IMG/VR virus record: IMGVR_UViG_3300045988_146577
Direction: 5' to 3' (one strand)
From: a virus
Lineage: Duplodnaviria > Heunggongvirae > Uroviricota > Caudoviricetes
DNA length: 64,000 bases
The position numbers and the translations under genes are program-made. The notes under the pieces were generated by a model that saw only the letters and a program-made list of their open reading frames with translations, made no database searches and was not told where the DNA came from. Below are positions 5,968 through 63,234 of the stretch, in pieces. Numbering within the stretch: position 1 is the stretch's first letter; each line of letters opens with the position of its first letter.

Positions 5968-6002
5968 TGGAGAGTTCCCTTTGCGTATATAATTATCGTC
6001 TG

Positions 6003-6018
6003 AAACAACTTGTTTTCT
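6003..6018 (-). promoter_or_regulatory. class-1 palindrome in parA leader
   Basis: AAACAACTTGTTTTCT about 36 nt upstream of parA start. Confidence 0.5.
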
Positions 6019-6285
6019 TATATGTGATATAGCCTAAATGCCTACGGCTGCGGTGTAAAGGTTAAATGGTAGGTTGTGATTAACAATTGGCAATCATAGC
6101 TTGTATTTGTCTGTTGAAAAAAGTAACAATGACCTCTATATTACAAGTACGGTGATATGCCGTACACAATTTGATAATGCACACGTAATGGGCTATAGCC
6201 TTTTAAAGTAATTTTTGAGTCGAAAACTCAGTTTGAACAGAGGAGATTGATGGCCTTCCTACATCACGGCCATCAGGAGGAATAC

Positions 6286-38592: not shown

Positions 38593-40152
38593 ATGACTGT
38601 TCGGATTGTATCTAACGCAGTTAATGCGCTTATTTCTGGCGCAGATGACAAGGTAAAGCAAATGGTGCAACAGATGTTGAGCTACGAAGTCGAGACTGGC
38701 GACTGGAAGGGCACAAGCACGATGTTCAACTGGAGTAAAAACTCGTTCCCTGCTGGCTTTGCCAAGCCTGTAGCGGCGAACTTGAACAAGGCGGGCATAA
38801 AATGTGTTCATATCCGCAAAGACAAAGCCCCGGCGCTTGGTAAACCAAATCCGGCGGTTAACCCATTCCCATGCAATCCTGATTATGCGTATCAGGATCA
38901 GACTGTGGAAACACTAGTTCGAGAGGGAATGATGATTGCGCAGATCGCTACTGGTGGCGGGAAATCTAATGTTGCCTGCAAAGCAGCTGCACGTATCGGT
39001 CGAATGACATTATTTTTAACAACCCGCTCTGTTCTGATGTTTCAGATGGCCGAAAACTTCCAGAGATCCATCGACTACCGCGCCGAAAATGGCGAACCGT
39101 GGTTAAAAGACCAAAAGGTTGGAGTCATTGGCTCGGGTGAGTTCCAGGTATCACGACATATCAACGTCGCTACAGTTCAAACTCTTGCAAGTTTCCTCGA
39201 AGAACCACCACGCGATGCAACACCAGATAAGAAAAGCTTCCACCTCAAACGTCGGGAGTTGGTGAAACGCTTCCTTTCAAGTGTCTCTCTTCTTATTCTG
39301 GAAGAGGCGCATGAGTCTTCAGGCTCAAATTTCTATGACATTGCCAGATTATGTGTGAACGCAGACTATCGTCTGGCACTTACGGCCACGCCGTTCATGA
39401 AGGATTCTACAGAAGCCAACATGCGTCTGATGGCTGTGGCTGGGCGAATTGAAATCAAAGTCACAGAAAAGTACCTGATTGATCGAGGCATTCTGGCAAA
39501 ACCGTACTTCCTTTATCATAAAGTTGCCTACAAGCCAGACGAGGTCAGAATAAAGGCGGAACTTGCCAACAAACACCTCAATTTTAGAGTTGGTATGAGC
39601 ACCGCCTACCAAAAGGCTTATCAGTTGGGGATCGTGTATAATTTGGGACGTAACGAGGCCATTGTGCGCGAAGCATTGCTCTATAAGCAACATTCTCTCA
39701 ATTGTATGACTCTGGTTCGTCTTAAACGCCACGGGCAAATCCTGATGGAAATGATGAAAGAGTCCGGCCTTAGAGTTGACTTCATTTATGGGGAATCGAA
39801 CCAGTCGACAAGGCAAGCAAAGCTGAACAGTTTAGCGTCTGGTGAAATAGATGTTTTAATAGGCTCGACTATTCTGGATGTTGGTGTTGATGTGCCAAGC
39901 GTTGGTGCGGTCATTCTTGCTGGTGGTGGGAAAGCAGAAGTTGAAATGAGACAGCGTGTCGGTCGTGGCTTACGAGCCAAGAAGAATCAGGCAAACGTGT
40001 GTTTTATCACTGATTTCATTGACATTAGCAACAAATACCTGTTGTCTCACTCTTATGAGCGAAAACACATCATCGACACCACACCTGGCTTTGCAGAAGG
40101 TGTATTGCCTATTGATGGCGCATTCGATTTTGGAGTTCTGAAACGAGATTAG
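38593..40152 (+). CDS. SF2 (DEAH-like) helicase
   Basis: Motif I ATGGGKS, motif II LILEEAHE, motif III TATP, motif VI QRVGRGLR; AAGGAAAGAGG RBS. Confidence 0.8.
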   Translation: MTVRIVSNAVNALISGADDKVKQMVQQMLSYEVETGDWKGTSTMFNWSKNSFPAGFAKPVAANLNKAGIKCVHIRKDKAPALGKPNPAVNPFPCNPDYAYQDQTVETLVREGMMIAQIATGGGKSNVACKAAARIGRMTLFLTTRSVLMFQMAENFQRSIDYRAENGEPWLKDQKVGVIGSGEFQVSRHINVATVQTLASFLEEPPRDATPDKKSFHLKRRELVKRFLSSVSLLILEEAHESSGSNFYDIARLCVNADYRLALTATPFMKDSTEANMRLMAVAGRIEIKVTEKYLIDRGILAKPYFLYHKVAYKPDEVRIKAELANKHLNFRVGMSTAYQKAYQLGIVYNLGRNEAIVREALLYKQHSLNCMTLVRLKRHGQILMEMMKESGLRVDFIYGESNQSTRQAKLNSLASGEIDVLIGSTILDVGVDVPSVGAVILAGGGKAEVEMRQRVGRGLRAKKNQANVCFITDFIDISNKYLLSHSYERKHIIDTTPGFAEGVLPIDGAFDFGVLKRD

Positions 40153-40154
40153 TT

Positions 40155-40433
40155 ATGAGCGAAAAGAAAACAACTTATTGCCAAGTGGCATTGTCTGATA
40201 AGGCCAATGAAAAACTTGGAAAATTCCAAATAAAACTCAAAGAGAAAAAAATCAAGATGTCTAAGGCTGAAGTTATCAATGCCATTCTGGAGACGATGAC
40301 TATGGCTGAATTTGACAAAGTCACATCTGCCGTTGGGGTTTCCGCTAAGACGCGTGAGAAAATCATGCGCATCTATGAAAACTCCAATATGACAAAAAAA
40401 GATCTAGAGGAAATACTGAGCAGGTTGCCGTAA
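40155..40433 (+). CDS. hypothetical protein (92 aa)
   Basis: ATG 2 nt after helicase stop. Confidence 0.4.
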   Translation: MSEKKTTYCQVALSDKANEKLGKFQIKLKEKKIKMSKAEVINAILETMTMAEFDKVTSAVGVSAKTREKIMRIYENSNMTKKDLEEILSRLP

Positions 40434-42352: not shown

Positions 42353-42874
42353 ATGGTTAAAGACATCACCTACGGCATACCGGCTGAAGTATGGCCGCGA
42401 GACTACGAACATGCTGAACGCACCTTGCTCTTCTGGCGGAGAGCTAAATTTCCTGTAAGAGTCACTCTCGAAGACGGCCAAGTGTTTTGCATGTACGTTT
42501 ATGGTCTCATGTCATCTCGTAACAAAGTTGACCTTTGTCCAACTCCATTTGACAAAGAAAATCGTATAAGGCTCCCACTTGAGCGCATTAGCACAATTGA
42601 ATCAGGCGTAATTGATGGCATTGATTACGATTTCAAAGGGAGACTAACAATACACCCTGACTATGTAGACAACCAGCCATCACGTCGTGACTTTTTTAAG
42701 ATATGTCGTCAGGCTTACCAAAACGGCAAATCTATAAGGGTCTACATGGCAGACGGTCGCGAAATTGAGGGAACGTCAGATGGCGTTGACGCCTGTCTAG
42801 TCACACTTAAGTTGGAAGACGGTAGAAAAATACTTATTTTCTTCGATTGGGTTGAACGAATCCTTCCGTTTTAG
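42353..42874 (+). CDS. hypothetical protein (173 aa)
   Basis: ORF with ATG start; no motif recognised. Confidence 0.4.
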   Translation: MVKDITYGIPAEVWPRDYEHAERTLLFWRRAKFPVRVTLEDGQVFCMYVYGLMSSRNKVDLCPTPFDKENRIRLPLERISTIESGVIDGIDYDFKGRLTIHPDYVDNQPSRRDFFKICRQAYQNGKSIRVYMADGREIEGTSDGVDACLVTLKLEDGRKILIFFDWVERILPF

Positions 42875-44395: not shown

Positions 44396-44401
44396 AATCG
44401 A

Positions 44402-44424
44402 GCGCCCACTATGGGCGCTTTTTT
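44402..44424 (+). terminator. rho-independent terminator (duplicate of 44131 hairpin)
   Basis: GCGCCCA-cta-TGGGCGC followed by TTTTTT. Confidence 0.65.
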
Positions 44425-44449
44425 CGTTTCCAATACTTCCACCATAACG

Positions 44450-44472
44450 CGCCAATGATGGCGCTTTTTTTA
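44450..44472 (+). terminator. rho-independent terminator
   Basis: GCGCCA-atga-TGGCGC followed by TTTTTTT. Confidence 0.6.
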
Positions 44473-44884
44473 TTGTCTTTGACTCAAGCCAACAACATAA
44501 AAATAAGCGCCAAAATAACGCCATAGACGCGCTTTTATATCCTTACCAGTACATACCCATTACTTAGCGCATTAACGCGCTTAAATCGCGTTATATTGCG
44601 TTATGGTGTATGGTTAATCATTGGCTTTTATTCTTGCTATGTGATCCGCGTTTAATTGTCGGCGCGGATCGGCATTTTGTTTTGTTCCGTATCCGCTCGC
44701 GTATTATGTGCGCGTGATTTTTCACATAATCACACCACTTAATCACATATGTGATTACGCTACGAAAGAAATCTGGATGTCTCAGGCGACGAAAGTCATC
44801 ATAATTTTCCCCGCTCACCTGTCCGACAACCGCTGGTTGGATTCCACCAGCTTCCCGATGTTTTTTCTATATAAAGGCGAATGC

Positions 44885-45002
44885 AGCCGTTTCCCGAAAA
44901 AATCCTGGCCGTTTCCCGTCGGCTCATGAATACGTTCCTCGCCGTTTCTGAAAATTTCCCTGCGGCAGCTGGTGGCTATATAGAAAGGGCCGTTTCTGGC
45001 CC
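44885..45002. repeat. iteron-like cluster 1: four degenerate copies of GCCGTTTCC(C)GAAAA
   Basis: Copies at about 44885, 44907, 44940, 44988, spaced 22-48 bp; each contains small dyad TTTC..GAAA. Confidence 0.55.
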
Positions 45003-45011
45003 TCTTCTCAG

Positions 45012-45494
45012 TTACACGCCATCAAGGATGTGGATGCGGTTGCTTGCGTATACATTCAGCATAAAGTTAGCGCAAAACAGTTTCCATGTATCAACGCCAG
45101 CGGTATACGTAATGTTTTTGCATTTAATCGCATTGTTGGCGATCCGCATCCCCTGCGATACTGCTTCATCGTCGGAAAATTTGAACGACGATTGAGTTTT
45201 AATCCAGACAGAAATCTGCGTAGCGAACTCAATCAGCTTGGACTGGCAGAATCGCCCGGAGCGCACCGGAAAGACGAACGTTCCGAATCCAGAATTTACC
45301 ACATACGCTTTCTCAAATACCCGCGAGTAACGACGATTGCCAATGATGTCGCGTGCAATAATGCATTTTTCTTGTGCTGACAGTTCTACCGTCTCATTGT
45401 CGCGCCATGCACCAAGTACTCGTTTTTCAATGTCAGAGAACGTTACAGCGATATTGCCATGTGCGGGTGCGTTTACAGTAGCGATAAAATTCAT
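45012..45494 (-). CDS. hypothetical protein (160 aa)
   Basis: AAGGAA RBS; class-1 palindrome in leader. Confidence 0.5.
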   Translation of the reverse strand: MNFIATVNAPAHGNIAVTFSDIEKRVLGAWRDNETVELSAQEKCIIARDIIGNRRYSRVFEKAYVVNSGFGTFVFPVRSGRFCQSKLIEFATQISVWIKTQSSFKFSDDEAVSQGMRIANNAIKCKNITYTAGVDTWKLFCANFMLNVYASNRIHILDGV

Positions 45495-45515
45495 GATTAA
45501 TTCCTTATCGTAAAT

Positions 45516-45530
45516 AACAAATTGTTTTCT
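45516..45530 (-). promoter_or_regulatory. class-1 palindrome
   Basis: ACAAATTGTTTTCT followed by TGTTGGTGTTAATTATCG. Confidence 0.5.
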
Positions 45531-45580
45531 TGTTGGTGTTAATTATCGTTGTACGAATAAGGCGTCAAAGTGGAAAGTTG

Positions 45581-45669
45581 CGGTAGCCGGACGGGAACAG
45601 GTGGGTTTGTCGGTTGCCTGGAGGTAAGAGGTTGGTGTTTTTAGCCTGCGGGAAACAGGATGGTCATTT
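45581..45669. repeat. three tandem degenerate ~30-nt repeats (CGGTAGCCNGG...AGGTGGGTnTTT)
   Basis: Direct tandem units read on + strand; paralogous copy at 49207-49290. Confidence 0.5.
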
Positions 45670-45698
45670 AAGGCCACCAGCATTGGTGGCCTTACTCT

Positions 45699-45980
45699 TT
45701 AGTGGAGCAGACCGATGTCGATGGTATCCCCTGAATCATCCACACGGATCATCAGCATGGCGAAGGCGTTTAGTGGATAGCTTGCGTGCCATTCAGGGAA
45801 GCGGTCATCTCGCATGAAGTCGGCAATGTCGTAAACGCAGCCCTCAAAGTGGAAGAATCGCGTGCTTACCTGCTCGTCATATTCCACATGATCCATTTCT
45901 TGCTGTTCTGTTTCCGGCAAGTCCAGCCATGATTCAAGGAATACATTTTGTGCTTTAGGGGTAATGGTGAAATCAGTCAT
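45699..45980 (-). CDS. hypothetical small acidic protein (93 aa)
   Basis: GAGG RBS before ATG at 45980; track ORF 45699..46112 reads through the leader motif. Confidence 0.45.
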   Translation of the reverse strand: MTDFTITPKAQNVFLESWLDLPETEQQEMDHVEYDEQVSTRFFHFEGCVYDIADFMRDDRFPEWHASYPLNAFAMLMIRVDDSGDTIDIGLLH

Positions 45981-45999
45981 GAGCATATCCTCACTGCGT

Positions 46000-46015
46000 A
46001 AACATATTGTTTTCT
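46000..46015 (-). promoter_or_regulatory. class-1 palindrome
   Basis: AAACATATTGTTTTCT followed by TGTTGGTGTAATTATCG. Confidence 0.5.
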
Positions 46016-46315
46016 TGTTGGTGTAATTATCGCAGTGTAGATAAGGCATAAAAGAAGTTAATACAGGCTGAATACACAAGAAAGGTTCTGGAAGTTGATA
46101 GCCAGGTTTCAAACTAACCTTCGGTTATTAAAAGTCATTTAAGACCACCAATGCTGGTGGCCTTAATAATTATCGCCCGATTACGCTAAGGATCTTTTCC
46201 TCAACTGATTTGTTGTTGCGACTAAACTGCCTTGCGTATCTGATGACAGAAGAGGCGTTTTGCTTTCTGACCATCTCGACTCTTTCCTTCAGGCGTTTCT
46301 TGAAATCGCCCATAT

Positions 46316-46690
46316 TTACCACCAGGCGCAGAAGGTCAGTCTGTTATTGTGAAAGTCGTGGTTCTTAATCAGATCTTCCACAAGCTCTTTCAACTCCCCC
46401 ACATCATGCCAGTAACCTTCATCGTACTCCTGACTGCCGAAGAAAAAACCTTCCCGGGTAGGCAAGTACTCTTCGCAATTACTTTCGTTTATGTGCATCA
46501 AATGAGCCTTCAGAAAACAAATGTCATTCATCGTTAATTCTAAAAGCTCACAATTTTCGACTTCACCTACGTTGCGCTCCATCCACCCAACGAGCGCATT
46601 GAACTTACGGAAGTAAGCAACCTGCTTTCTGGATGCCTCGTTATTCAGATCGTTTTTAGGCTGTGTCTCGATATAGATATCAAGTCCCAT
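46316..46690 (-). CDS. hypothetical small acidic protein (124 aa)
   Basis: AAGGA RBS before ATG at 46690 (track start 46732 is GTG). Confidence 0.45.
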   Translation of the reverse strand: MGLDIYIETQPKNDLNNEASRKQVAYFRKFNALVGWMERNVGEVENCELLELTMNDICFLKAHLMHINESNCEEYLPTREGFFFGSQEYDEGYWHDVGELKELVEDLIKNHDFHNNRLTFCAWW

Positions 46691-46746
46691 GATGGTTTCC
46701 TTATTAAGTTGCTTCAGTGAAATCATTTTCACAAATCAGATAAGGC

Positions 46747-46762
46747 AGAAAACAAATTGTTA
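46747..46762 (+). promoter_or_regulatory. class-1 palindrome, inverted orientation, adjacent to terminator
   Basis: AGAAAACAAATTGTTA next to hairpin 46775-46799. Confidence 0.4.
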
Positions 46763-46774
46763 TCGGGCATAATA

Positions 46775-46799
46775 AAATGGCGCGGTTTGCGCGCCATTT
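46775..46799 (-). terminator. rho-independent terminator
   Basis: AAATGGCGCG-gtttg-CGCGCCATTT hairpin followed by U-rich tract on minus strand, after stop of 46808 gene. Confidence 0.6.
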
Positions 46800-46807
46800 A
46801 AAGAGGA

Positions 46808-47203
46808 TTAAGCGAATACGCTTTCAGGGATTAAGGTGTCGGCAGGAATGCCAGAGGTAATGCGCAGACCGTACTGGCCAATCCAGGTGGTGCTGGTGTT
46901 CAGGCTGGAGGCGAATACGGTGTTAACCATATTCATCATGGTTTCAAACACCTCTTCATCAACCTGGCGGAAGTAGTTCTCGATTTTCAGCAGCAGAGGG
47001 TCAGTTGCATCGAGAATGGACTGGTATTGAGTCGCGTACTCGCCGCCGGAGGCATCACCTTTACGCACGATCGTACTGGCCTGGACTTCGGCACCAGTTT
47101 CGGTGTTGTACGTAACAACGGTGATTTTTGCCACATTCTTACCTTCGGCGGTTTCAGAGGCATAGTAAACATCAACTGTCAGTTTTTCGCGTTTAACGGT
47201 CAT
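46808..47203 (-). CDS. hypothetical protein (131 aa)
   Basis: GGAG RBS before ATG at 47203; class-2 palindrome and terminator upstream. Confidence 0.45.
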   Translation of the reverse strand: MTVKREKLTVDVYYASETAEGKNVAKITVVTYNTETGAEVQASTIVRKGDASGGEYATQYQSILDATDPLLLKIENYFRQVDEEVFETMMNMVNTVFASSLNTSTTWIGQYGLRITSGIPADTLIPESVFA

Positions 47204-47245
47204 TTCACTCTCCGTAGTGTTTTGGTTATTTTTATATTCTATGAT

Positions 47246-47263
47246 CGTAAGTATGTACTTACA
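47246..47263 (-). promoter_or_regulatory. class-2 palindrome
   Basis: CGTAAGTATGTACTTACA just downstream of terminator hairpin 47272-47298. Confidence 0.45.
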
Positions 47264-47271
47264 ATACAAAA

Positions 47272-47298
47272 AAGCCCCGTAAGGATGGCGGGGCTGTC
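47272..47298 (-). terminator. hairpin terminator
   Basis: GCCCCG-taaggatgg-CGGGGC downstream of 47330 gene stop. Confidence 0.5.
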
Positions 47299-47329
47299 GT
47301 ACTGTCGACTAATTACCACTTGCACATTA

Positions 47330-47641
47330 TCAGGCTATTGCCATCACTGATGCTCTCTGAATTTCTTGCTGGGCCACGCGGTTAACTTCCATCAAAGCCA
47401 GTTCGAGCTGATGTTCCGGCCACATTCTTTGAAATGCCATCCAGCCTTTTCCACGCTGGCGACGAACATTCATTACATAACGAGTAAAGGTGTTTTTATC
47501 GAAAGACACCGCTGTTTCACGGAACAGACGAATAGAGGTTCCATTGGCAACGATGTCCAGCAAAGTTAATTGAGCAACCAGCGCAGGCTTCTCTTTTCTC
47601 TTCTGGTCTTTGTCCAGACCAAGAACCAATGATTTTTTCAT
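47330..47641 (-). CDS. hypothetical small basic protein (103 aa)
   Basis: GGAG RBS before ATG at 47641; class-1 palindrome in leader. Confidence 0.45.
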   Translation of the reverse strand: MKKSLVLGLDKDQKRKEKPALVAQLTLLDIVANGTSIRLFRETAVSFDKNTFTRYVMNVRRQRGKGWMAFQRMWPEHQLELALMEVNRVAQQEIQRASVMAIA

Positions 47642-47652
47642 CACAACTCCGT

Positions 47653-47668
47653 AAACAACTTGTTTTCT
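47653..47668 (-). promoter_or_regulatory. class-1 palindrome
   Basis: AAACAACTTGTTTTCT about 12 nt upstream of RBS. Confidence 0.5.
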
Positions 47669-47794
47669 CAATGGCGTAAATAATACCAGTAAGAAAACGG
47701 CTACAAAGCATATTGATCAGGTGCATGAGCGATATGCAGGTTCTTCCCTGCGGCTATAGAGAAATTAAGCCAGCAATGCTGGCTTTGGTTGGGA

Positions 47795-48124
47795 TTACTC
47801 GAATACTTCAAGAAACTCCTGAACGTCCCAATGCTGGACGAGGTGAAGATAGACCTTAGAAATCACGTCATTTTCGCTATCGCATGTGAAGTAGTACTTC
47901 TGGCTGCGGTTGTATGTGTCCACACAAAATTCGCTCATATCCATAAAGTCAGCATCTTCACCCATGTCGCAAATCATCAAAGCAGGTGCGTCATCACGAG
48001 TCATCAGCTCAAGCACCCACCGCGAATTGATCAGAGTGGAAGACCAACCTTCCAGCTCATAGAACTGGTCAAACTCTTTTTGAGTCAATTTCTTGATTTG
48101 GTTGATGTCGATATGTGCAAACAT
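47795..48124 (-). CDS. hypothetical small highly acidic protein (109 aa)
   Basis: AAGGA RBS before ATG at 48124; track start 48145 lies inside class-1 palindrome. Confidence 0.45.
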   Translation of the reverse strand: MFAHIDINQIKKLTQKEFDQFYELEGWSSTLINSRWVLELMTRDDAPALMICDMGEDADFMDMSEFCVDTYNRSQKYYFTCDSENDVISKVYLHLVQHWDVQEFLEVFE

Positions 48125-48136
48125 AAAGCAATCCTT

Positions 48137-48152
48137 AAACAACATGTTTTCT
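48137..48152 (-). promoter_or_regulatory. class-1 palindrome
   Basis: AAACAACATGTTTTCT followed by TGTTGGTGTTATTATCG. Confidence 0.5.
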
Positions 48153-48485
48153 TGTTGGTGTTATTATCGCAATAACGCACAGGCGAAAAAGGATTTTATT
48201 CCGGTGAATGTGGTTTTGGCAGTGAGTTTTCAGGTTCAGTACCGAGTACACTTTTTACATTATTCTGATTTAGTGGCCGAAGGTGGCTGGTGGGCAGAAT
48301 AATCATCTCCCCGAAAACCTACTGAAATCGATTGTGACCCGTTGGCTGTCTGGCACAATTACGCTGTAACTGGGCATTCAGAGGGAATCCAGCGGTAAGT
48401 AAGTTCGCCTGCACGTGAGCGCCTCTCTTCTTCCCGCACATTACAGGTGGGTAGCCGCAACTCTCCCTCTCGCTATACCGGTACG

Positions 48486-48617
48486 CCGCCGTTCCTGAAC
48501 CGGCATCGAGCCTTTTCCCGAAATCCACACAGGCAACTCGACCGTTTCCCTGAAAACCTCCAGCCGTTCCCCGAAGGCAACCCAGCCGTTTCTGTAGCGG
48601 GATGCAGCCTTTTCCCT
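48486..48617. repeat. iteron-like cluster 2: six degenerate copies of GCCGTT(T)CC(C)(T)GAA
   Basis: Copies at about 48486, 48510, 48540, 48562, 48584, 48605; 22-30 bp spacing. Confidence 0.55.
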
Positions 48618-48649
48618 GTATGGACCGAAGGCTGACCGTAGGGGTGTTA

Positions 48650-49600
48650 CGGGGGGGTAAAATCAGGAGTTGAATAAATACGAAAAAGGAGGCGACACCC
48701 CTCCTTCCCTCCCCACTTATACATACCTGTCTTGTTCGCTATACATGTTGTGTTTTCTTCGTGTTTTATCTGTCTCAACCTCTCTATAGGCGTTAATGCT
48801 CACTCCTTCCAGAACGTTCTATACGGCGACTATTTCTGTTGGTGAATTGGGTGTGTTGTTTTCTCTGTCGGTGTATGTAGTTTCATTAGTTTTGCGGTGG
48901 TTCTTCTATGGGGTGTTCTCGTCGTTTTGGTGATTGTTCTTCTCCGTGTATGGAGTAATGACAGGTGGGCGATTGCTTTCGTTATTGTGTTTGAGTTGTT
49001 TGTCTGGAGTGTGAAAGGCTTTTGTAGTTATTCGTGTATTGGGTAATGGCGTTTCCCGTGATTGTTATGTTTCGTGTCTTTTGGGATTGAGAGAAACCTT
49101 GCGGTTACAGGCTTCGTTGGGGTTTCAGTGATTCTGATGTTTCTTCGCTGTTTGGGTAATGGCGTGTCGTGAGTATCGCGCGTATGGAAGTTTCGAATTG
49201 CCTGTGAAAGTTAGGTTGGTTGTCCGGTAGCCTGGGAAGAAGAGGTGGGTCTTTTCGGTAGCCTGCCATAAAGAGGTTGGTTGTTTTGGGAATGGCATAT
49301 GTGTTATTTAGTTGTTTTGTTATGCCTGAAAATAAGTTGTTTATATGGTTATGTAACGCAACGGGAACGATTTTGAGCGTGTGTTTTTGTTGGTAGTGTG
49401 TTGGGTCGTCTGTGGTGAAAATTGGACGCTGTGGCGCTGTCTGCTGCGTAGAATTACGGGTATAAGCTGTGATGTGTGGAAACGTCAATTTTTTAGACCA
49501 AATCGGGTGAAAGCGTTGATGTTTCGTTGATCTGTTATTCAGTTGTTTTCTTGATTGTATAAACAACTATAACTTATTGATATTTAAGGATGTGATTGCG
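48650..49600. other. ORF-free, strongly G+T-skewed (on + strand) region with internal degenerate repeats; candidate non-coding RNA or origin-like region
   Basis: No plausible ORF on + strand; only minus-strand ORF is low-complexity; repeats TTGGGTAATGGCGT at about 49035 and 49151. Confidence 0.4.
49207..49290. repeat. tandem degenerate ~30-nt repeats, paralog of 45581-45669
   Basis: CCGGTAGCCTGGGAAGAAGAGGTGGGTCTTTT then CGGTAGCCTGCCATAAAGAGGTTGGTTGTTTT. Confidence 0.5.
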
Positions 49601-49676
49601 GGTATGGAAGGGGAGTAGTGGCGATCAACGGATTCTTATAGAAAAGAATCAAATTGTGACCGCCATTATCAATGTT

Positions 49677-50411
49677 TTACTTAGTTTTGTTTAGCAGAGA
49701 GAGAATTTCATCACTAATTTCACTCGCCTGTTTGATAGCCAATGCAGTTACCTCTTCTATGGTTGGTGACTGTTGATGCTCATGTTTGGTTTCAGTTATG
49801 ACAATGTGTTCTTCACCTGAATTTGCGCATAGTGCCGCATTGACTATAAGGTTTGAGTAAGAATTTAGCAGAGCACTGTTGATAAACGCTTTCACGGTAT
49901 TACTGTCTGCACCAAATACATCTTTTCTGACCGCTTCAGCCTCACAGCGAACCCCTGCAGCAACATCGTGAAGAACATGTATGGCCTTGGAGCTTGTTTG
50001 TTCACAGTACTCAATCATTATTGTCGAATTGTTCTGTTCAACAAATGATCTGATGCCTGACGATTCACCCATAGCATCGAAGGCAGCGTGACTCGCACTA
50101 GTAGAGATATCTTCATAGAGTTCTTCATCGCTATCTTTTTCTTCAGGTGTCGAGGTGTCTTCATCGTCGTAATAGATATTGCCTTTAATCAGTGTTTTGG
50201 ATACTTGATATAAACAATAAGAGACAAGATTTAAGCATTGGATTTTAGCTGTATTGTCCTTTGTCGCCTCGCTCTTCAGTTCTTTCGCTTCTTCAGTAAG
50301 GCTGTTGATAAGACTTTGTATTTTTTCCAACGCGTTAGGTGCACACTCCGCGTTGTCCATAAAGAATTTATAACCAGTTCCAGGGATTTCTAAACTTTTC
50401 AACTTTTTCAT
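49677..50411 (-). CDS. hypothetical protein (244 aa, AT-rich, acidic)
   Basis: ORF with ATG start; low GC relative to neighbours. Confidence 0.45.
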   Translation of the reverse strand: MKKLKSLEIPGTGYKFFMDNAECAPNALEKIQSLINSLTEEAKELKSEATKDNTAKIQCLNLVSYCLYQVSKTLIKGNIYYDDEDTSTPEEKDSDEELYEDISTSASHAAFDAMGESSGIRSFVEQNNSTIMIEYCEQTSSKAIHVLHDVAAGVRCEAEAVRKDVFGADSNTVKAFINSALLNSYSNLIVNAALCANSGEEHIVITETKHEHQQSPTIEEVTALAIKQASEISDEILSLLNKTK

Positions 50412-50756: not shown

Positions 50757-50769
50757 TTCAACCACTCCA

Positions 50770-50785
50770 AAACAAGTTGTTTTCT
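50770..50785 (-). promoter_or_regulatory. class-1 palindrome
   Basis: AAACAAGTTGTTTTCT immediately upstream of RBS of 50457 gene. Confidence 0.5.
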
Positions 50786-50817
50786 TATGTGGTTTATTAT
50801 CTCCATCAACAAAAGGC

Positions 50818-50834
50818 AGAAAACAAATTGTTTT
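50818..50834 (+). promoter_or_regulatory. class-1 palindrome, inverted orientation, about 40 nt from metG terminator
   Basis: AGAAAACAAATTGTTTT. Confidence 0.4.
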
Positions 50835-50874
50835 AGGTACTGTGTAAATCAGAAGGGATTGTGTCTATATGAAA

Positions 50875-50917: not shown

Positions 50918-52951
50918 TTACTTAACCTGGTGGCCAGGTTTAGCACCAGCATCCGGGCTTAACAGGAAGATATCTTTCCCACCGGGGCCAGCAGCCATCA
51001 CCATACCTTCGGAGATACCGAAGCGCATTTTACGCGGAGCCAGGTTAGCCACCATAATGGTGTGACGACCAATCAGTGCCTGTGGGTCTGGATAAGCAGA
51101 ACGGATGCCTGAGAAGACATTGCGTTTTTCACCACCTAGATCCAGCGTCAGACGCAGCAGTTTGTCAGAGCCTTCAACAAACTCCGCGTTTTCAATCAGC
51201 GCCACGCGCAGGTCAACTTTGGCGAAGTCATCAAAGGTGATGGTTTCCTGAATCGGATCGTCTGCCAGCGGGCCAGTAACTGGCGCGGCAGTGGCTTTCA
51301 CTTCTTCTTTAGAGGCTTCCACCAGTGCTTCAACCTGCTTCATGTCGATGCGGTTATACAGTGCTTTGAACGGATTAACTTTGTGCGCCAGCAGCGGTTG
51401 CTGGATGCCATCCCAGGTCAGTTCCGTATTGAGGAATGCTTCTGCACGCTCGGTCAGTTTCGGCAGTACCGGCTTCAGGTAAGTCATCAGCACGCGGAAC
51501 AGGTTGATGCCCATTGAGCAAATTGCCTGCAGGTCGGCATCGCGGCCTTCCTGTTTCGCCACCACCCACGGAGCCTGTTCATCGACATAGCGGTTAGCCA
51601 GGTCAGCCAATGCCATGATTTCACGGATAGCTTTACCAAATTCACGGCTTTCCCATGCTTCGCCAATCACTTCAGCGGCATCAGTAAAGGTTTTGTACAG
51701 TTGCGGGTCAGCCAGTTCGCTTGCCAGCACGCCGTCAAAACGCTTGTTGATAAAGCCTGCATTACGAGAGGCCAGGTTAACCACTTTGTTCACGATATCG
51801 GCATTCACGCGCTGAACGAAATCCTCCAGGTTGAGATCGATATCATCAATGCGCGAAGAGAGTTTCGCAGTGTAGTAGTAACGCAGGCTGTCAGCGTCAA
51901 AATGATTCAGCCAGGTGCTGGCTTTAATAAAGGTGCCGCGAGACTTGGACATCTTTGCGCCGTTCACCGTCACATAGCCATGAACAAACAGGTTGGTCGG
52001 CTTGCGGAAGTTGCTGCCTTCCAGCATGGCAGGCCAGAACAGGCTGTGGAAGTAAACAATATCTTTACCGATGAAGTGGTACAGCTCGGCGGTGGAGTCT
52101 TTCTTCCAGTATTCATCGAAGCTTACGCTGTCGCCGCGCTTGTCGCACAGATTCTTGAAAGAACCCATGTAGCCAATCGGTGCGTCCAGCCAGACGTAGA
52201 AATATTTGCCCGGCGCGTTCGGAATTTCAAAACCGAAGTAAGGCGCATCGCGGGAGATATCCCACTGTTGCAGGCCGGATTCAAACCATTCCTGCATTTT
52301 GTTCGCCACCTGCTCCTGCAACGCGCCGCTGCGGGTCCATGCCTGCAACATTTCGCTGAAAGAAGGCAGATCAAAGAAGAAGTGTTCGGAATCACGCATT
52401 ACCGGGGTAGCGCCAGAAACCACCGATTTCGGCTCGATCAATTCAGTCGGGCTATATGTTGCGCCGCAGACTTCACAGTTATCGCCGTATTGATCTGGCG
52501 CTTTACATTTCGGGCAGGTGCCTTTCACAAAACGATCCGGCAGGAACATGCCTTTTTCCGGGTCGTACAACTGAGAGATAGTGCGGTTTTTAATAAAACC
52601 GTTCTCTTTCAGGCGAGTATAGATAAGCTCAGACAGCTGGCGGTTCTCTTCGCTGTGCGTCGAGTGATAGTTGTCATAGCTGATGTTAAAGCCTGCGAAA
52701 TCAGTCTGGTGTTCCTGACTCATTTCGCCAATCATCTGCTCCGGAGTGATACCAAGCTGCTGAGCTTTCAGCATGATCGGCGTACCGTGGGCATCGTCGG
52801 CACAGATGAAATTAACCTCGTGGCCGCGCATTCGCTGGTAACGAACCCAGACATCAGCCTGGATGTGCTCCAGCATATGGCCGAGGTGGATTGAGCCGTT
52901 AGCGTACGGCAGCGCGCACGTCACCAGAATTTTCTTCGCGACTTGGGTCAT
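50918..52951 (-). CDS. metG: methionyl-tRNA synthetase
   Basis: 677 aa; class I HIGH (GSIHLGH) and KMSKS motifs; Zn knuckle CPKC...CEVC; C-terminal tRNA-binding domain; start at MTQVAKK (track ORF extends 43 codons upstream). Confidence 0.95.
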
Positions 52952-53108
52952 AGTAGGCATTACTTCTTTGTAGTGAAAAGGGGCTTGATAGTAACAAAAT
53001 GGCCTTATGTCTGCCATGTGATAACAGCATTTCTCATAAATGATTAAATGTCGTAGCTGGAGTACACTACAAGGCGACAATTGCGCAAATTAAAATAAAG
53101 GAGACGGG

Positions 53109-54209
53109 ATGAGCGAGTCCAAATCGCCGGATGCCCTGAGAGCAATGGTAGCCGGTACGCTGGCTAATTTTCAGCACCCAACCCTGAAACACAACCTGAC
53201 TACGCTTAAAGCGTTACACCATGTTGCGTTGATGGATGACACACTGCATGTCGAACTAATCATGCCTTTCGTGTGGAATAAGCCTTTTGAAGACCTGAAA
53301 GAGCAATGTAGTGGTGATCTGCTCCGTATCACTGGCGCAAAGGCTATTGACTGGAAGCTGTCGTACAACATTGCCACGCTTAAGCGCGTCAAAAACCAAC
53401 CAGGCATTAATGGCGTTAAGAACATTATCGCCGTCAGCTCAGGCAAGGGCGGCGTGGGTAAATCCTCCACGGCGGTAAACCTGGCACTGGCGTTGGCTGC
53501 TGAAGGTGCGAAAGTTGGTATTTTGGATGCCGATATCTATGGTCCATCAATTCCAACCATGCTGGGCGCGGAAAACCAACGTCCAACCTCACCTGACGGT
53601 ACTCACATGGCACCTATCATGTCTCATGGCCTGGCAACCAACTCTATTGGTTATCTGGTCACCGACGACAATGCAATGGTGTGGCGTGGACCGATGGCCA
53701 GCAAGGCGCTGATGCAGATGTTGCAGGAAACTCTATGGCCTGATCTGGACTATCTCGTTCTCGATATGCCGCCGGGCACTGGTGATATTCAGTTGACGCT
53801 GGCGCAGAACATTCCTGTAACTGGTGCGGTTGTGGTAACTACGCCGCAAGACATCGCGCTGATCGATGCGAAGAAAGGCATTGTGATGTTCGAAAAAGTC
53901 GAAGTGCCGGTACTGGGTATCGTCGAAAACATGAGTGTGCATATTTGCAGTAACTGCGGTCATCACGAGCCAATTTTTGGCACCGGTGGCGCACAGAAAC
54001 TGGCCGAGAAATACAACACGCAGTTGTTAGGCCAAATGCCTCTTCATATCTCTCTTCGTGAAGATCTGGATAACGGAACACCAACCGTTATTAGTCGTCC
54101 AGATAGTGAATTTACGGCTATTTATCGTGACCTCGCAGATCGCGTTGCTGCCCAAATGTATTGGCAAGGTGAAGTAATACCTGGCGAAATCGCATTCCGC
54201 GCAGTGTGA
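53109..54209 (+). CDS. apbC: Fe-S cluster carrier ATPase ApbC/Mrp
   Basis: Deviant Walker A SGKGGVGKSS, CxxC (CSNCGHH); AAGGAG RBS; divergent from metG as in enterobacterial chromosomes. Confidence 0.9.
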   Translation: MSESKSPDALRAMVAGTLANFQHPTLKHNLTTLKALHHVALMDDTLHVELIMPFVWNKPFEDLKEQCSGDLLRITGAKAIDWKLSYNIATLKRVKNQPGINGVKNIIAVSSGKGGVGKSSTAVNLALALAAEGAKVGILDADIYGPSIPTMLGAENQRPTSPDGTHMAPIMSHGLATNSIGYLVTDDNAMVWRGPMASKALMQMLQETLWPDLDYLVLDMPPGTGDIQLTLAQNIPVTGAVVVTTPQDIALIDAKKGIVMFEKVEVPVLGIVENMSVHICSNCGHHEPIFGTGGAQKLAEKYNTQLLGQMPLHISLREDLDNGTPTVISRPDSEFTAIYRDLADRVAAQMYWQGEVIPGEIAFRAV

Positions 54210-62418: not shown

Positions 62419-62436
62419 GTGTTTTTCCTAATGCTT

Positions 62437-62452
62437 AAACAAGTTGTTTTCT
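62437..62452 (-). promoter_or_regulatory. class-1 palindrome
   Basis: AAACAAGTTGTTTTCT about 18 nt upstream of ATG. Confidence 0.5.
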
Positions 62453-62557
62453 TATTGGCTTTATTGTGATGTGGCATAAAAGGGGAGCAAGCTAAACGTA
62501 AAGGTGCAAACTCTCTATTTCGGTCAACGAAACACAAGGGCCATTTGGCCCTTGTCA

Positions 62558-63141: not shown

Positions 63142-63165
63142 GTGTTTTCCTTTTATTATTTGTCA

Positions 63166-63181
63166 AAACAAGTTGTTTTCT
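63166..63181 (-). promoter_or_regulatory. class-1 palindrome in TerB-like leader
   Basis: AAACAAGTTGTTTTCT about 25 nt upstream of ATG. Confidence 0.5.
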
Positions 63182-63234
63182 AGTTTCATAAATTGCTTGC
63201 GCAAAGATGGTCAATGCATATGCACTAACAACCG

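Follow-up and report, generated by a model that had tools for sequence, protein, structure and literature searches.

What is a stretch of some 870 base pairs, strongly enriched in G and T and holding no evident gene, doing in the genome of a phage? The question is raised by positions 48,650–49,600 of the Caudoviricetes virus record IMGVR_UViG_3300045988_146577, of which 64,000 nucleotides were analysed (the window; all positions and strands are those of this stretch). A preliminary description had seen here either a long structured or low-complexity non-coding RNA, C+A-rich if made from the minus strand, or a replication-origin-like region. Judged by its conservation, the tract belongs to the backbone of the SSU5-family phage-plasmids as a non-coding element under selection. 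As to its function, we tentatively propose a polar transcription barrier acting in cis, or an attenuated leader, between cargo genes and early genes and furnished with putative regulator sites, a possibility that we regard as well short of probable.

Composition, conservation and genomic position of the tract

The tract itself is delimited as follows.

48730–49600, no strand assigned: G+T-skewed (in the minus sense A+C-rich) non-coding tract, defined by composition, by the skew across the family and by substitutions

On the plus strand the tract has base fractions of A 0.177, C 0.133, G 0.288 and T 0.402, that is, a G+T content of 0.69, which lies at z = 9.2 relative to the other 870-bp windows of the 64 kb (mean 0.497, standard deviation 0.021, maximum 0.585). 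The other intergenic regions of the window are unskewed, with G+T of 0.42–0.61. The skew sets in at about 48730, and positions 48296–48729 are mildly C-rich. The strongly G+T-skewed region free of open reading frames (ORFs) that had been described is thus real, and its right end at 49600 stands, while its left end has to be moved from 48650 to near 48730. It belongs to an unannotated gap of 1.53 kb (48125/48146 to 49676), in agreement with the earlier delimitation by a gene ending at 48124 and a gene starting at 49677; the Prokaryotic Genome Annotation Pipeline (PGAP) places no annotation in this gap in any relative examined, including RefSeq plasmids of 98% identity. Gap and skew recur in relatives from E. 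coli, Salmonella, Enterobacter, Citrobacter and Klebsiella. The skew is kept in all eight family members profiled and in 12 of 14 representatives, which were drawn from plasmids and IMG/VR contigs; the two representatives without the full skew carry only part of the tract.

Could the gap conceal a protein-coding gene, hidden or decayed, or could it be filler without function? The minus strand does hold long open frames, namely the ORF 49105–49566 (153 amino acids) remarked on earlier and frames of up to 227 amino acids in relatives, and two ORFs in the gap were called by the annotators of phage Cyrano. On a strand as poor in T and G as this one, such frames are to be expected. In six-frame maps neither the open frames nor the stop codons keep their place and frame from one relative or lineage to the next, and codon periodicity is absent: in every pair the differences are spread evenly over first, second and third positions (for example 69, 66 and 59 of ~228 sites each), and likewise in the iteron-bearing part to the left of the tract. 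The flat differences and the unconserved frame rule out a protein-coding gene, so that 49105–49566 exists as an open frame and not as a gene. Identity in the gap is 58–81% among the E. coli, SSU5 and Klebsiella lineages, as against 30–45% at third codon positions in the two conserved genes on either side (50–83% at their first and second positions), and therefore the tract is under selection and is not neutral filler. An explanation by a hidden gene or by filler is, in our judgement, scarcely credible.

Conservation within the tract is uneven, with near-invariant blocks alternating with variable stretches. In the variable stretches G<->T is the commonest substitution, making up 27% of the differences as against 11% in the adjacent part, a share close to that predicted for saturation at the composition of the tract. 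Since G<->T dominates the substitutions and every lineage has the skew, the composition has been held while the sequence turned over. Rare variants among 15 close relatives (68 changes in total) amount to 0.053 per site for C>T, 0.067 for G>A, 0.076 for A>G and 0.021 for T>C.

On what kind of element does this tract reside? About 240 E. coli plasmids of 100–120 kb match the 1.53-kb stretch around it at 95–98% identity, these matches being to plasmids only; Escherichia phage Cyrano matches at 98%, and phage SSU5 together with phage-plasmids of Salmonella, Enterobacter, Citrobacter and Klebsiella at 66–73%. Because the gap region matches plasmids, Cyrano and SSU5 relatives, the window is, on this comparison, an SSU5-type (SSU5/Cyrano-type) phage-plasmid. 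A scan of a viral collection returned matches from the same SSU5 family only, and full-text literature searches found the region undescribed, except in a Cyrano RNA sequencing (RNA-seq) table that is considered below.

The tract lies at the junction of variable cargo, on the metG side, and small early genes that each have a promoter cassette of their own. Both flanking genes are on the minus strand, one of them (47795–48124) starting at the gap and the other (49677–50411) ending at it, and in the Cyrano annotation the genes CYRAN_64 to CYRAN_111 are, almost without exception, oriented alike, on what corresponds to the window's minus strand. The gap element is constant while the gene on its right differs between relatives; in Klebsiella this cargo consists of DUF262 and restriction-modification genes, and elsewhere of other genes. 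The plasmid replication gene, repA, is ~33 kb from the tract.

Folding and transcription of the tract

Does the tract act as a structured RNA, as the preliminary description had supposed? When covariance was checked with RNAalifold in sliding 120-nt windows over the 14 representatives, with column-shuffled controls, the structure conservation index was 0.0–0.3 on both strands, and Rfam gave no match at the gathering thresholds nor at E <= 10. The 871 nt have a minimum free energy of -121 kcal/mol in the minus sense, which is weak, versus -222 kcal/mol in the plus sense. The low index and the empty Rfam search rule out a structured non-coding RNA; no conserved fold was found in the tract by either program, and conserved folds are confined to two hairpins at its boundaries. 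The long structured RNA is thereby not borne out, the weak minus-sense folding included.

The expectation of a C+A-rich RNA agrees with the composition: provided that the tract is transcribed in the same direction as its neighbours, its RNA would be 40% A, 29% C, 13% G and 18% U. The C/G ratio of this minus-sense RNA is 1.9–3.4 in eight of ten 78-nt windows between 48857 and 49600, and 1.7 in one other. A Rho utilisation (rut) sequence is at least ~80 nt of untranslated, C-rich, G-poor and unstructured RNA, and the minus-sense tract has these properties over ~750 nt.

Whether such an RNA is made in lysogens can be read from a strand-specific RNA-seq re-analysis of E. coli LF82 with Cyrano, in which the logarithm of fragments per kilobase per million (fpkm), as log2(fpkm+5), is given per gene under five conditions (PMC9928086). 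The table covers lysogens and minus-sense gene values, and Cyrano is 98% identical to the element of the window. CYRAN_102, which is the cargo gene 49677–50411 and lies just upstream in the minus sense, has values of 5.6–9.2; CYRAN_103, an ORF call over 49213–49569, has 2.32–4.27, the value of 2.32 being 0 fpkm and belonging to overnight culture in lysogeny broth (LB); and CYRAN_104 (48319–48723) has 2.6–4.7, all in the minus sense, with a prophage median fpkm+5 of 9.8, i.e. 3.3 on the log2 scale (PMC9928086). Minus-sense 49213–49569 thus gives 0 fpkm in LB and at most ~14 fpkm in the other conditions, and the LB signal falls from 45–59 fpkm in the upstream gene to 0 in the tract (PMC9928086). 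Lysogens lack minus-sense RNA from the tract, at whose right edge transcription of the upstream gene comes to a halt. The expressed minus-strand RNA that had been envisaged finds no counterpart in these lysogens.

Repeats, hairpins and cassettes in and beside the tract

The gap contains the following elements, given from left to right.

48146–48209, minus: promoter/leader cassette GATAAT-N9-AAGAAAACA..TTGTTT of the gene 47795–48124, and left limit of the gap; found by nhmmer with a profile of eight cassettes, E = 1.8e-13
48286–48293, plus: Chi octamer GCTGGTGG, conserved in the E. coli and Klebsiella types
48332–48359, plus: sigma-70-like promoter candidate TTGTGA-N16-(TGg)CACAAT, facing right, towards the iterons and the tract; in 7 of 14 representatives it occupies one and the same position of the alignment
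48488–48616, plus: six iteron-like repeats GCCKTTYCCC, starting at 48488, 48510, 48541, 48563, 48585 and 48607, mostly 22 bp apart
48646–48727, no strand assigned: highly conserved junction block with GTTACG7, TTGAAT, a purine/pyrimidine hairpin and CTTATAC, where the GC and AT skews flip in sign
48683–48709, minus: terminator-like hairpin with a U run at the left edge of the tract, called by terminator scans of the window and, in Klebsiella, of the homologous site
48940–49168, plus: three 28-nt direct repeats TTCTYCGTGTATnGRGTAATGRC, starting at 48940, 49028 and 49141
49195–49286, plus: three tandem 31-nt units CGGTAGCCTG-N7-GAGGTGGGTnTTTT, at 49225–49255 and 49256–49286, with a degenerate third at 49195–49224
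49310–49345, no strand assigned: imperfect palindrome AGTTGTTTTG..GAAAATAAGTTG, related to the cassette palindrome
49354–49379, no strand assigned: near-invariant block TAACGCAACGGGAnCGnTTnTGAGCG
49459–49488, minus: promoter-like element TTGACG-N18-TATACC, with invariant hexamers and a spacer that is variable in sequence and fixed in length
49481–49531, no strand assigned: cluster of CGTTGAY half-sites (49483–49488 inverted, 49514–49520 and 49525–49531), with one more at 49624–49630
49542–49552, minus: exact leader 11-mer AAGAAAACAAC ('class-1 half-site') without the promoter part
49619–49665, minus: composite hairpin whose outer arms are TGGCGGTCA/TGATCGCCA, immediately following the cargo gene's stop codon; kept where the right-hand gene differs

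Read in the minus sense from the cargo, the order is therefore hairpin, CGTTGAY sites with the promoter-like element, palindrome, 31-nt units, GTAATGGC units, hairpin, iterons, Chi and cassette. For the hairpin 48683–48709, RNAalifold finds 10 pairs, three of them with compensatory changes, and a consensus fold in the minus sense only. For the hairpin 49619–49665, the consensus energy is -9.2 in the minus sense versus -5.3 in the plus sense, and it is across this hairpin that the RNA-seq signal drops.

The degenerate repeats noted earlier at ~49035 and ~49151 are confirmed: GGGTAATGGCG occurs exactly at 49041–49051 and 49154–49164, within the 28-nt units, and with at most one mismatch at four sites, against 0.63 expected in the window. 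Relatives have two to six GTAATGG copies in one shared orientation. The tandem units that had been placed at 49207–49290 are indeed repeats, with a unit length of 31 nt rather than 30 and with positions 49225–49286 plus the degenerate 49195–49224; Tandem Repeats Finder did not call them. Three more copies of this unit, in the form CGGTAGCCTG-N7-GAGGTGGGT, are found at 45583–45664, between the hairpin after the gene 45699–46049 and the real promoter of the gene 45012–45494, and many IMG/VR relatives have the unit at two loci ~3.3 kb apart. Complementarities of 11 and 14 nt, exact or near-exact (48425–48435 with 49234–49244, and 48528–48541 with 49193–49206), exist between the 31-nt units and the C-rich part on the left of the gap. 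The promoter-like TTGACG-N18-TATACC is exact in 56 fetched loci, and its -35 part lies within an inverted repeat of CGTTGAY-type half-sites, a motif whose enrichment is local only and not window-wide. We infer that the element is a promoter, one with a -10 hexamer lacking the usual final T.

The iteron array is non-coding and is kept in 11 of the 14 representatives; no conserved RNA fold was found in it, its GGA-containing minus sense being without conserved hairpins. To its left, SSU5-type relatives have an 80-amino-acid plus-strand ORF in place of the promoter candidate 48332–48359, and to its right the G7 run of the junction block (48651–48657) is kept with at least five G residues. An IS21-family element (istB-like ORF) has inserted in one IMG/VR relative precisely where the iteron array borders on the conserved GTTACGGGGG block. 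A second iteron cluster, of GCCGTTTCCC at 44886, 44908, 44941 and 44989, is located in the gap 44396–45011 between convergent genes, where there are also a Chi octamer (44968), three TAATCACA near-DnaA boxes (44720–44760) and GC-rich terminator hairpins. In appearance, this other gap looks more origin-like than the tract.

A cassette of ~70 nt, consisting of GATAAT, ~9 nt, AAGAAAACAAC and an imperfect palindrome with TTGTTT, precedes nine small genes (at 5993–6064, 40121–40190, 45507–45572, 45989–46058, 47646–47710, 48128–48194, 50762–50828, 62430–62497 and 63159–63222), the left half of the palindrome being invariant and the right half variable. This recurrence suggests that the nine cassettes form one regulon of early genes. 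The cassette at 48146–48209 is paralogous to those at 46009–46073, 45524–45570 and 50779–50844. No full cassette is present in the tract, where nhmmer gives partial matches of E = 4.4 and 5.9 versus nine of E < 1e-5 elsewhere. Because the match at 49542–49552 reaches only E = 4.4, it is a leader 11-mer without a promoter; the class-1-like half-site reported near 49543 is thus present, as an exact AAGAAAACAAC on the minus strand, and the promoter role given to it falls away. The idea that the tract is an array of decayed cassettes is likewise unsupported, as GCCATTAC units align loosely by eye and the profile yields only fragments of E = 4–6.

The protein encoded at 42353–42874 (plus) matches Pfam PF03614, the FljA family (repressor of phase-1 flagellin), with E = 3.5e-80. 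Since FljA is a repressor of translation that binds RNA, the family member encoded here could recognise the leader AAGAAAACAAC..TTGTTT. Its gene is moderately expressed in the Cyrano lysogen (PMC9928086).

Among the neighbouring genes, those of 45012–48124 (minus), downstream of the tract, encode small and very acidic proteins of 100–160 amino acids, which may be early anti-defence proteins. The proteins of the neighbourhood belong to PHROG families of unknown function only, and Pfam, NCBIfam, PADLOC and PDB sequence searches with them were empty except for the FljA-family protein 6 kb away. On the cargo side there are a full-length methionyl-tRNA synthetase gene, metG (50918–53080, minus), and apbC (53109–54209, plus); these are cargo and not chromosomal flank, since they are annotated alike in the 98%-identical p1448_4 and in Cyrano. 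Klebsiella IncFIB/IncHI1B plasmids of 160–305 kb (e.g. pHNWH61-1) contain only the right part of the element (window 49225–49672), adjoining a DUF262 gene and a type I restriction-modification system. Because Klebsiella phage-plasmids have DUF262 and restriction-modification cargo after the element too, this suggests that the cargo travels with the border sequence. Chi octamers number 14 in the 64 kb (five plus, nine minus) against ~2 expected, and two of them are inside a repeated hairpin, AAGGCCACCA-N4-TGGTGGCCTT (45670–45698 and 46140–46165), after small genes. Neither tRNA nor tmRNA genes were found.

Possible roles of the tract and its known counterparts

How might such a tract work? In the barrier that we tentatively propose, RNA polymerase would enter from the cargo gene or start at the promoter-like element 49488–49459, and either start would yield a ribosome-free, C-rich RNA suited to Rho loading. 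The transcript would be ended inside the tract or at the bracketing hairpins (49665–49619 and 48709–48683), in which case the early genes on the left would be driven by their own controlled promoters only and be insulated from cargo transcription. The 31-nt units, the GTAATGGC units and the CGTTGAY half-sites would be sites for putative phage regulators that time the use of barrier and promoter. We infer both the dependence on Rho and the role of the repeats. A barrier is favoured by the high C/G ratio, the weak minus-sense folding and the lack of conserved structure and of a coding signal; by the minus-sense orientation shared by the neighbours CYRAN_64–111, with cassettes of their own for the downstream genes; by the loss of RNA-seq signal at the tract edge and the conserved hairpins at both ends; and by a composition that is kept while the sequence turns over, in an element that is fixed while the right-hand gene changes.

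Several points weigh against it. A hairpin, or ~100 nt of rut-like sequence, is enough for termination, which leaves 870 nt unexplained, together with the near-invariant blocks, the repeats and a conservation equal to that of first and second codon positions. The hairpin 49619–49665 alone could account for the drop in RNA-seq signal, a drop that cannot separate Rho from a hairpin, the role of Rho being predicted from sequence; the apparent strand preference of the hairpins is in part a matter of local base composition. The -10 hexamer TATACC is poor, and no conserved minus-strand sigma-70 consensus promoter was found inside the tract. The RNA-seq values are those of lysogens only, plus-strand values not being tabulated. 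Because a barrier leaves the length of the tract and the strength of its conservation unexplained, three rivals stay alongside it.

Does the locus act instead as DNA? That it is part of a second, lytic replication origin of the R-loop or iteron type seems to us unlikely. The 22-bp iterons (48488–48616) would bind a putative initiator, rightward transcription from 48332–48359 would make a G-rich, C-poor and Rho-resistant RNA, and an R-loop would extend from the G7 run over the tract, leaving the displaced G+T strand structure-free for loading of the phage helicase. The iterons are distinct from the RepA iterons and have a second small cluster 3.6 kb away (44886–44998) in a gap between convergent genes, the GC skew relative to the conserved rightward promoter candidate is +0.3 to +0.47, a conserved G run stands at the start of the tract with the flip in skew at 48730, the element encodes a helicase, a primase, Pol III alpha, RNase H and a UvsW-like helicase, and the minus-sense RNA is absent in lysogens, all of which an origin would accommodate. 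It is less at ease with the lack of a G-quadruplex motif, of an AT-rich unwinding element (GC 42%; range 42–54%) and of a DnaA box, TTATNCACA being absent from the whole window, or with neighbouring proteins among which Pfam, NCBIfam, PADLOC and PDB recognise no initiator; an RNA of 40% U would moreover form weak RNA:DNA hybrids, the rightward promoter occurs in only 7 of 14 representatives, and the rare variants show no plus-strand C-to-T excess (0.053 per C vs 0.067 per G for G-to-A). The plasmid origin of RepA was rejected as a candidate, as repA is ~33 kb away and is flanked by its own 21-bp iterons CTCTCTATAGTGGATA. Of the origin-like region of the preliminary description there survives an iteron-like array of direct repeats with helical spacing, beside the tract and not inside it; a classical origin, with DnaA boxes, an AT-rich unwinding element and an initiator gene next to the iterons, does not. 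Quite improbable, in our estimate, is a DNA-level array of regulator-binding sites (an operator, an enhancer cluster or a regulator sink) without any transcript role, the skew then following from the directionality of the repeats. The 31-nt unit also stands ahead of a real promoter (45583–45664) and ranges from two to four copies among relatives, iterons and 31-nt units are spaced at two and three helical turns, respectively, and the sequence is conserved without an RNA fold. The skew, however, persists between the repeats and in poorly conserved stretches, with G<->T dominant, and is therefore not merely a by-product of motifs; the cassette profile does not recognise the tract, A/T-tract helical periodicity is absent, and the binding protein would be a putative one.

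If the tract acts as RNA, could it do so in trans? A lytic-phase non-coding RNA acting in trans and repressed in lysogens would run leftward from ~49450 to the hairpin 48709–48683, be ~770 nt long, structure-free and A+C-rich, and display the repeated motifs GCCAUUAC and ACCCACCUCUU to a single-strand RNA-binding protein or to other RNAs, as decoys or for pairing, in the manner of CsrB or CrcZ. We hold this to be doubtful. It would make use of the promoter-like element with its fixed spacing in 56 loci and the operator-looking half-sites clustered around it, of the terminator-like hairpin at the far end, and of motifs that are co-oriented and enriched (GCCATTAC with at most one mismatch occurs four times, against 0.46 expected), and both the conservation of sequence without a fold and the silence in lysogens, which fits a repressed lytic promoter, are consistent with it. 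Yet no transcript is seen in the lysogen data, the -10 hexamer is without its key final T, Hfq-type (AAN)n and (ARN)n tracts are no commoner than in shuffled sequence, GGA is rare (5 in 871 nt), the partner protein is a hypothetical one, and Rho would itself shorten an untranslated C-rich RNA. A sponge for Hfq or CsrA finds no support in these motif counts, nor in the lysogen signal of 0 fpkm in LB. A narrower proposal, to which we give a slim chance, is that a lytic RNA of ~0.8 kb is kept nearly free of G and U, and hence unfoldable, and acts as a trans decoy for a host single-strand RNA-binding factor such as Rho or for Shine-Dalgarno sequences; ACCCACCUCUU resembles the 3' end of 16S rRNA and would be displayed single-stranded together with GCCAUUAC. 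We know of no phage-encoded 'unstructured sponge' RNA.

Why should the function of this tract matter? Clinical E. coli, Klebsiella, Salmonella and Enterobacter commonly harbour SSU5-type phage-plasmids, whose cargo includes resistance genes among others; to our knowledge, the regulation and lytic replication of these elements are essentially unstudied. The 1.5-kb element is among very few long non-coding stretches of their backbone, lies at the exact border of cargo exchange and is conserved like protein-coding positions. A polar barrier, if true, would explain how cargo is expressed in lysogens without switching on early phage genes, and would make the tract a Rho-loading region of unusual length, selected for its composition. 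Should the tract prove to be a lytic origin or a decoy RNA, it would offer a new handle on the induction and copy number of phage-plasmids.

How does the locus compare with known systems? With ColE1 RNA II, T4 oriF/oriG and the mitochondrial D-loop (conserved sequence block II) it shares a promoter candidate, a G cluster and a long G-rich non-template strand; as in R-loop-primed origins, RNase H and a UvsW-like helicase are encoded by the phage-plasmid, and the displaced strand of the tract is G+T-rich like the mitochondrial heavy strand. Unlike those origins, the tract would yield an RNA rich in U and not in purines, an unwinding element is lacking, and the promoter is not family-wide. With its six or seven repeats 22 bp apart and a second cluster of the same repeat 3.6 kb off, the locus resembles the iteron origins P1 oriR/incA, P4 ori/crr and R6K gamma, which have a distant second cluster, and it differs from them in that here an adjacent initiator gene, DnaA boxes and an AT-rich region are lacking and the iterons stand beside the tract. 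Like CsrB/CsrC, RsmY/Z and CrcZ, the tract is non-coding and has short co-oriented motifs presented single-stranded; unlike the CsrB and CrcZ sponges, it shows no enrichment of GGA or of A-rich Hfq/Crc motifs, its motifs are not in hairpin loops, and it has no Rfam similarity, no expression in lysogens and no known partner protein.

Phage T5 has a large non-coding repeat region, the injection stop signal region, next to its pre-early genes. Compared by description, it may offer a parallel to the element, which is likewise long, conserved and non-coding, contains repeats and palindromes and adjoins small early genes; we know of no evidence for two-step DNA injection by SSU5-type phages, unlike T5. 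Termination and attenuation by Rho, finally, are familiar from the rut site of lambda tR1, from the Salmonella mgtA and corA leaders, and from the silencing of untranslated or foreign transcripts. The tract differs from known rut regions in being several times (five to ten) longer and far more conserved, in a composition that is kept across genera, and in its near-invariant blocks and repeat families, which are unneeded for Rho loading. It resembles Rho-dependent terminators in that its RNA would be untranslated, C-rich, G-poor and unstructured and its effect polar, and in that it lies directly after a stop codon, where the transcript signal is lost.

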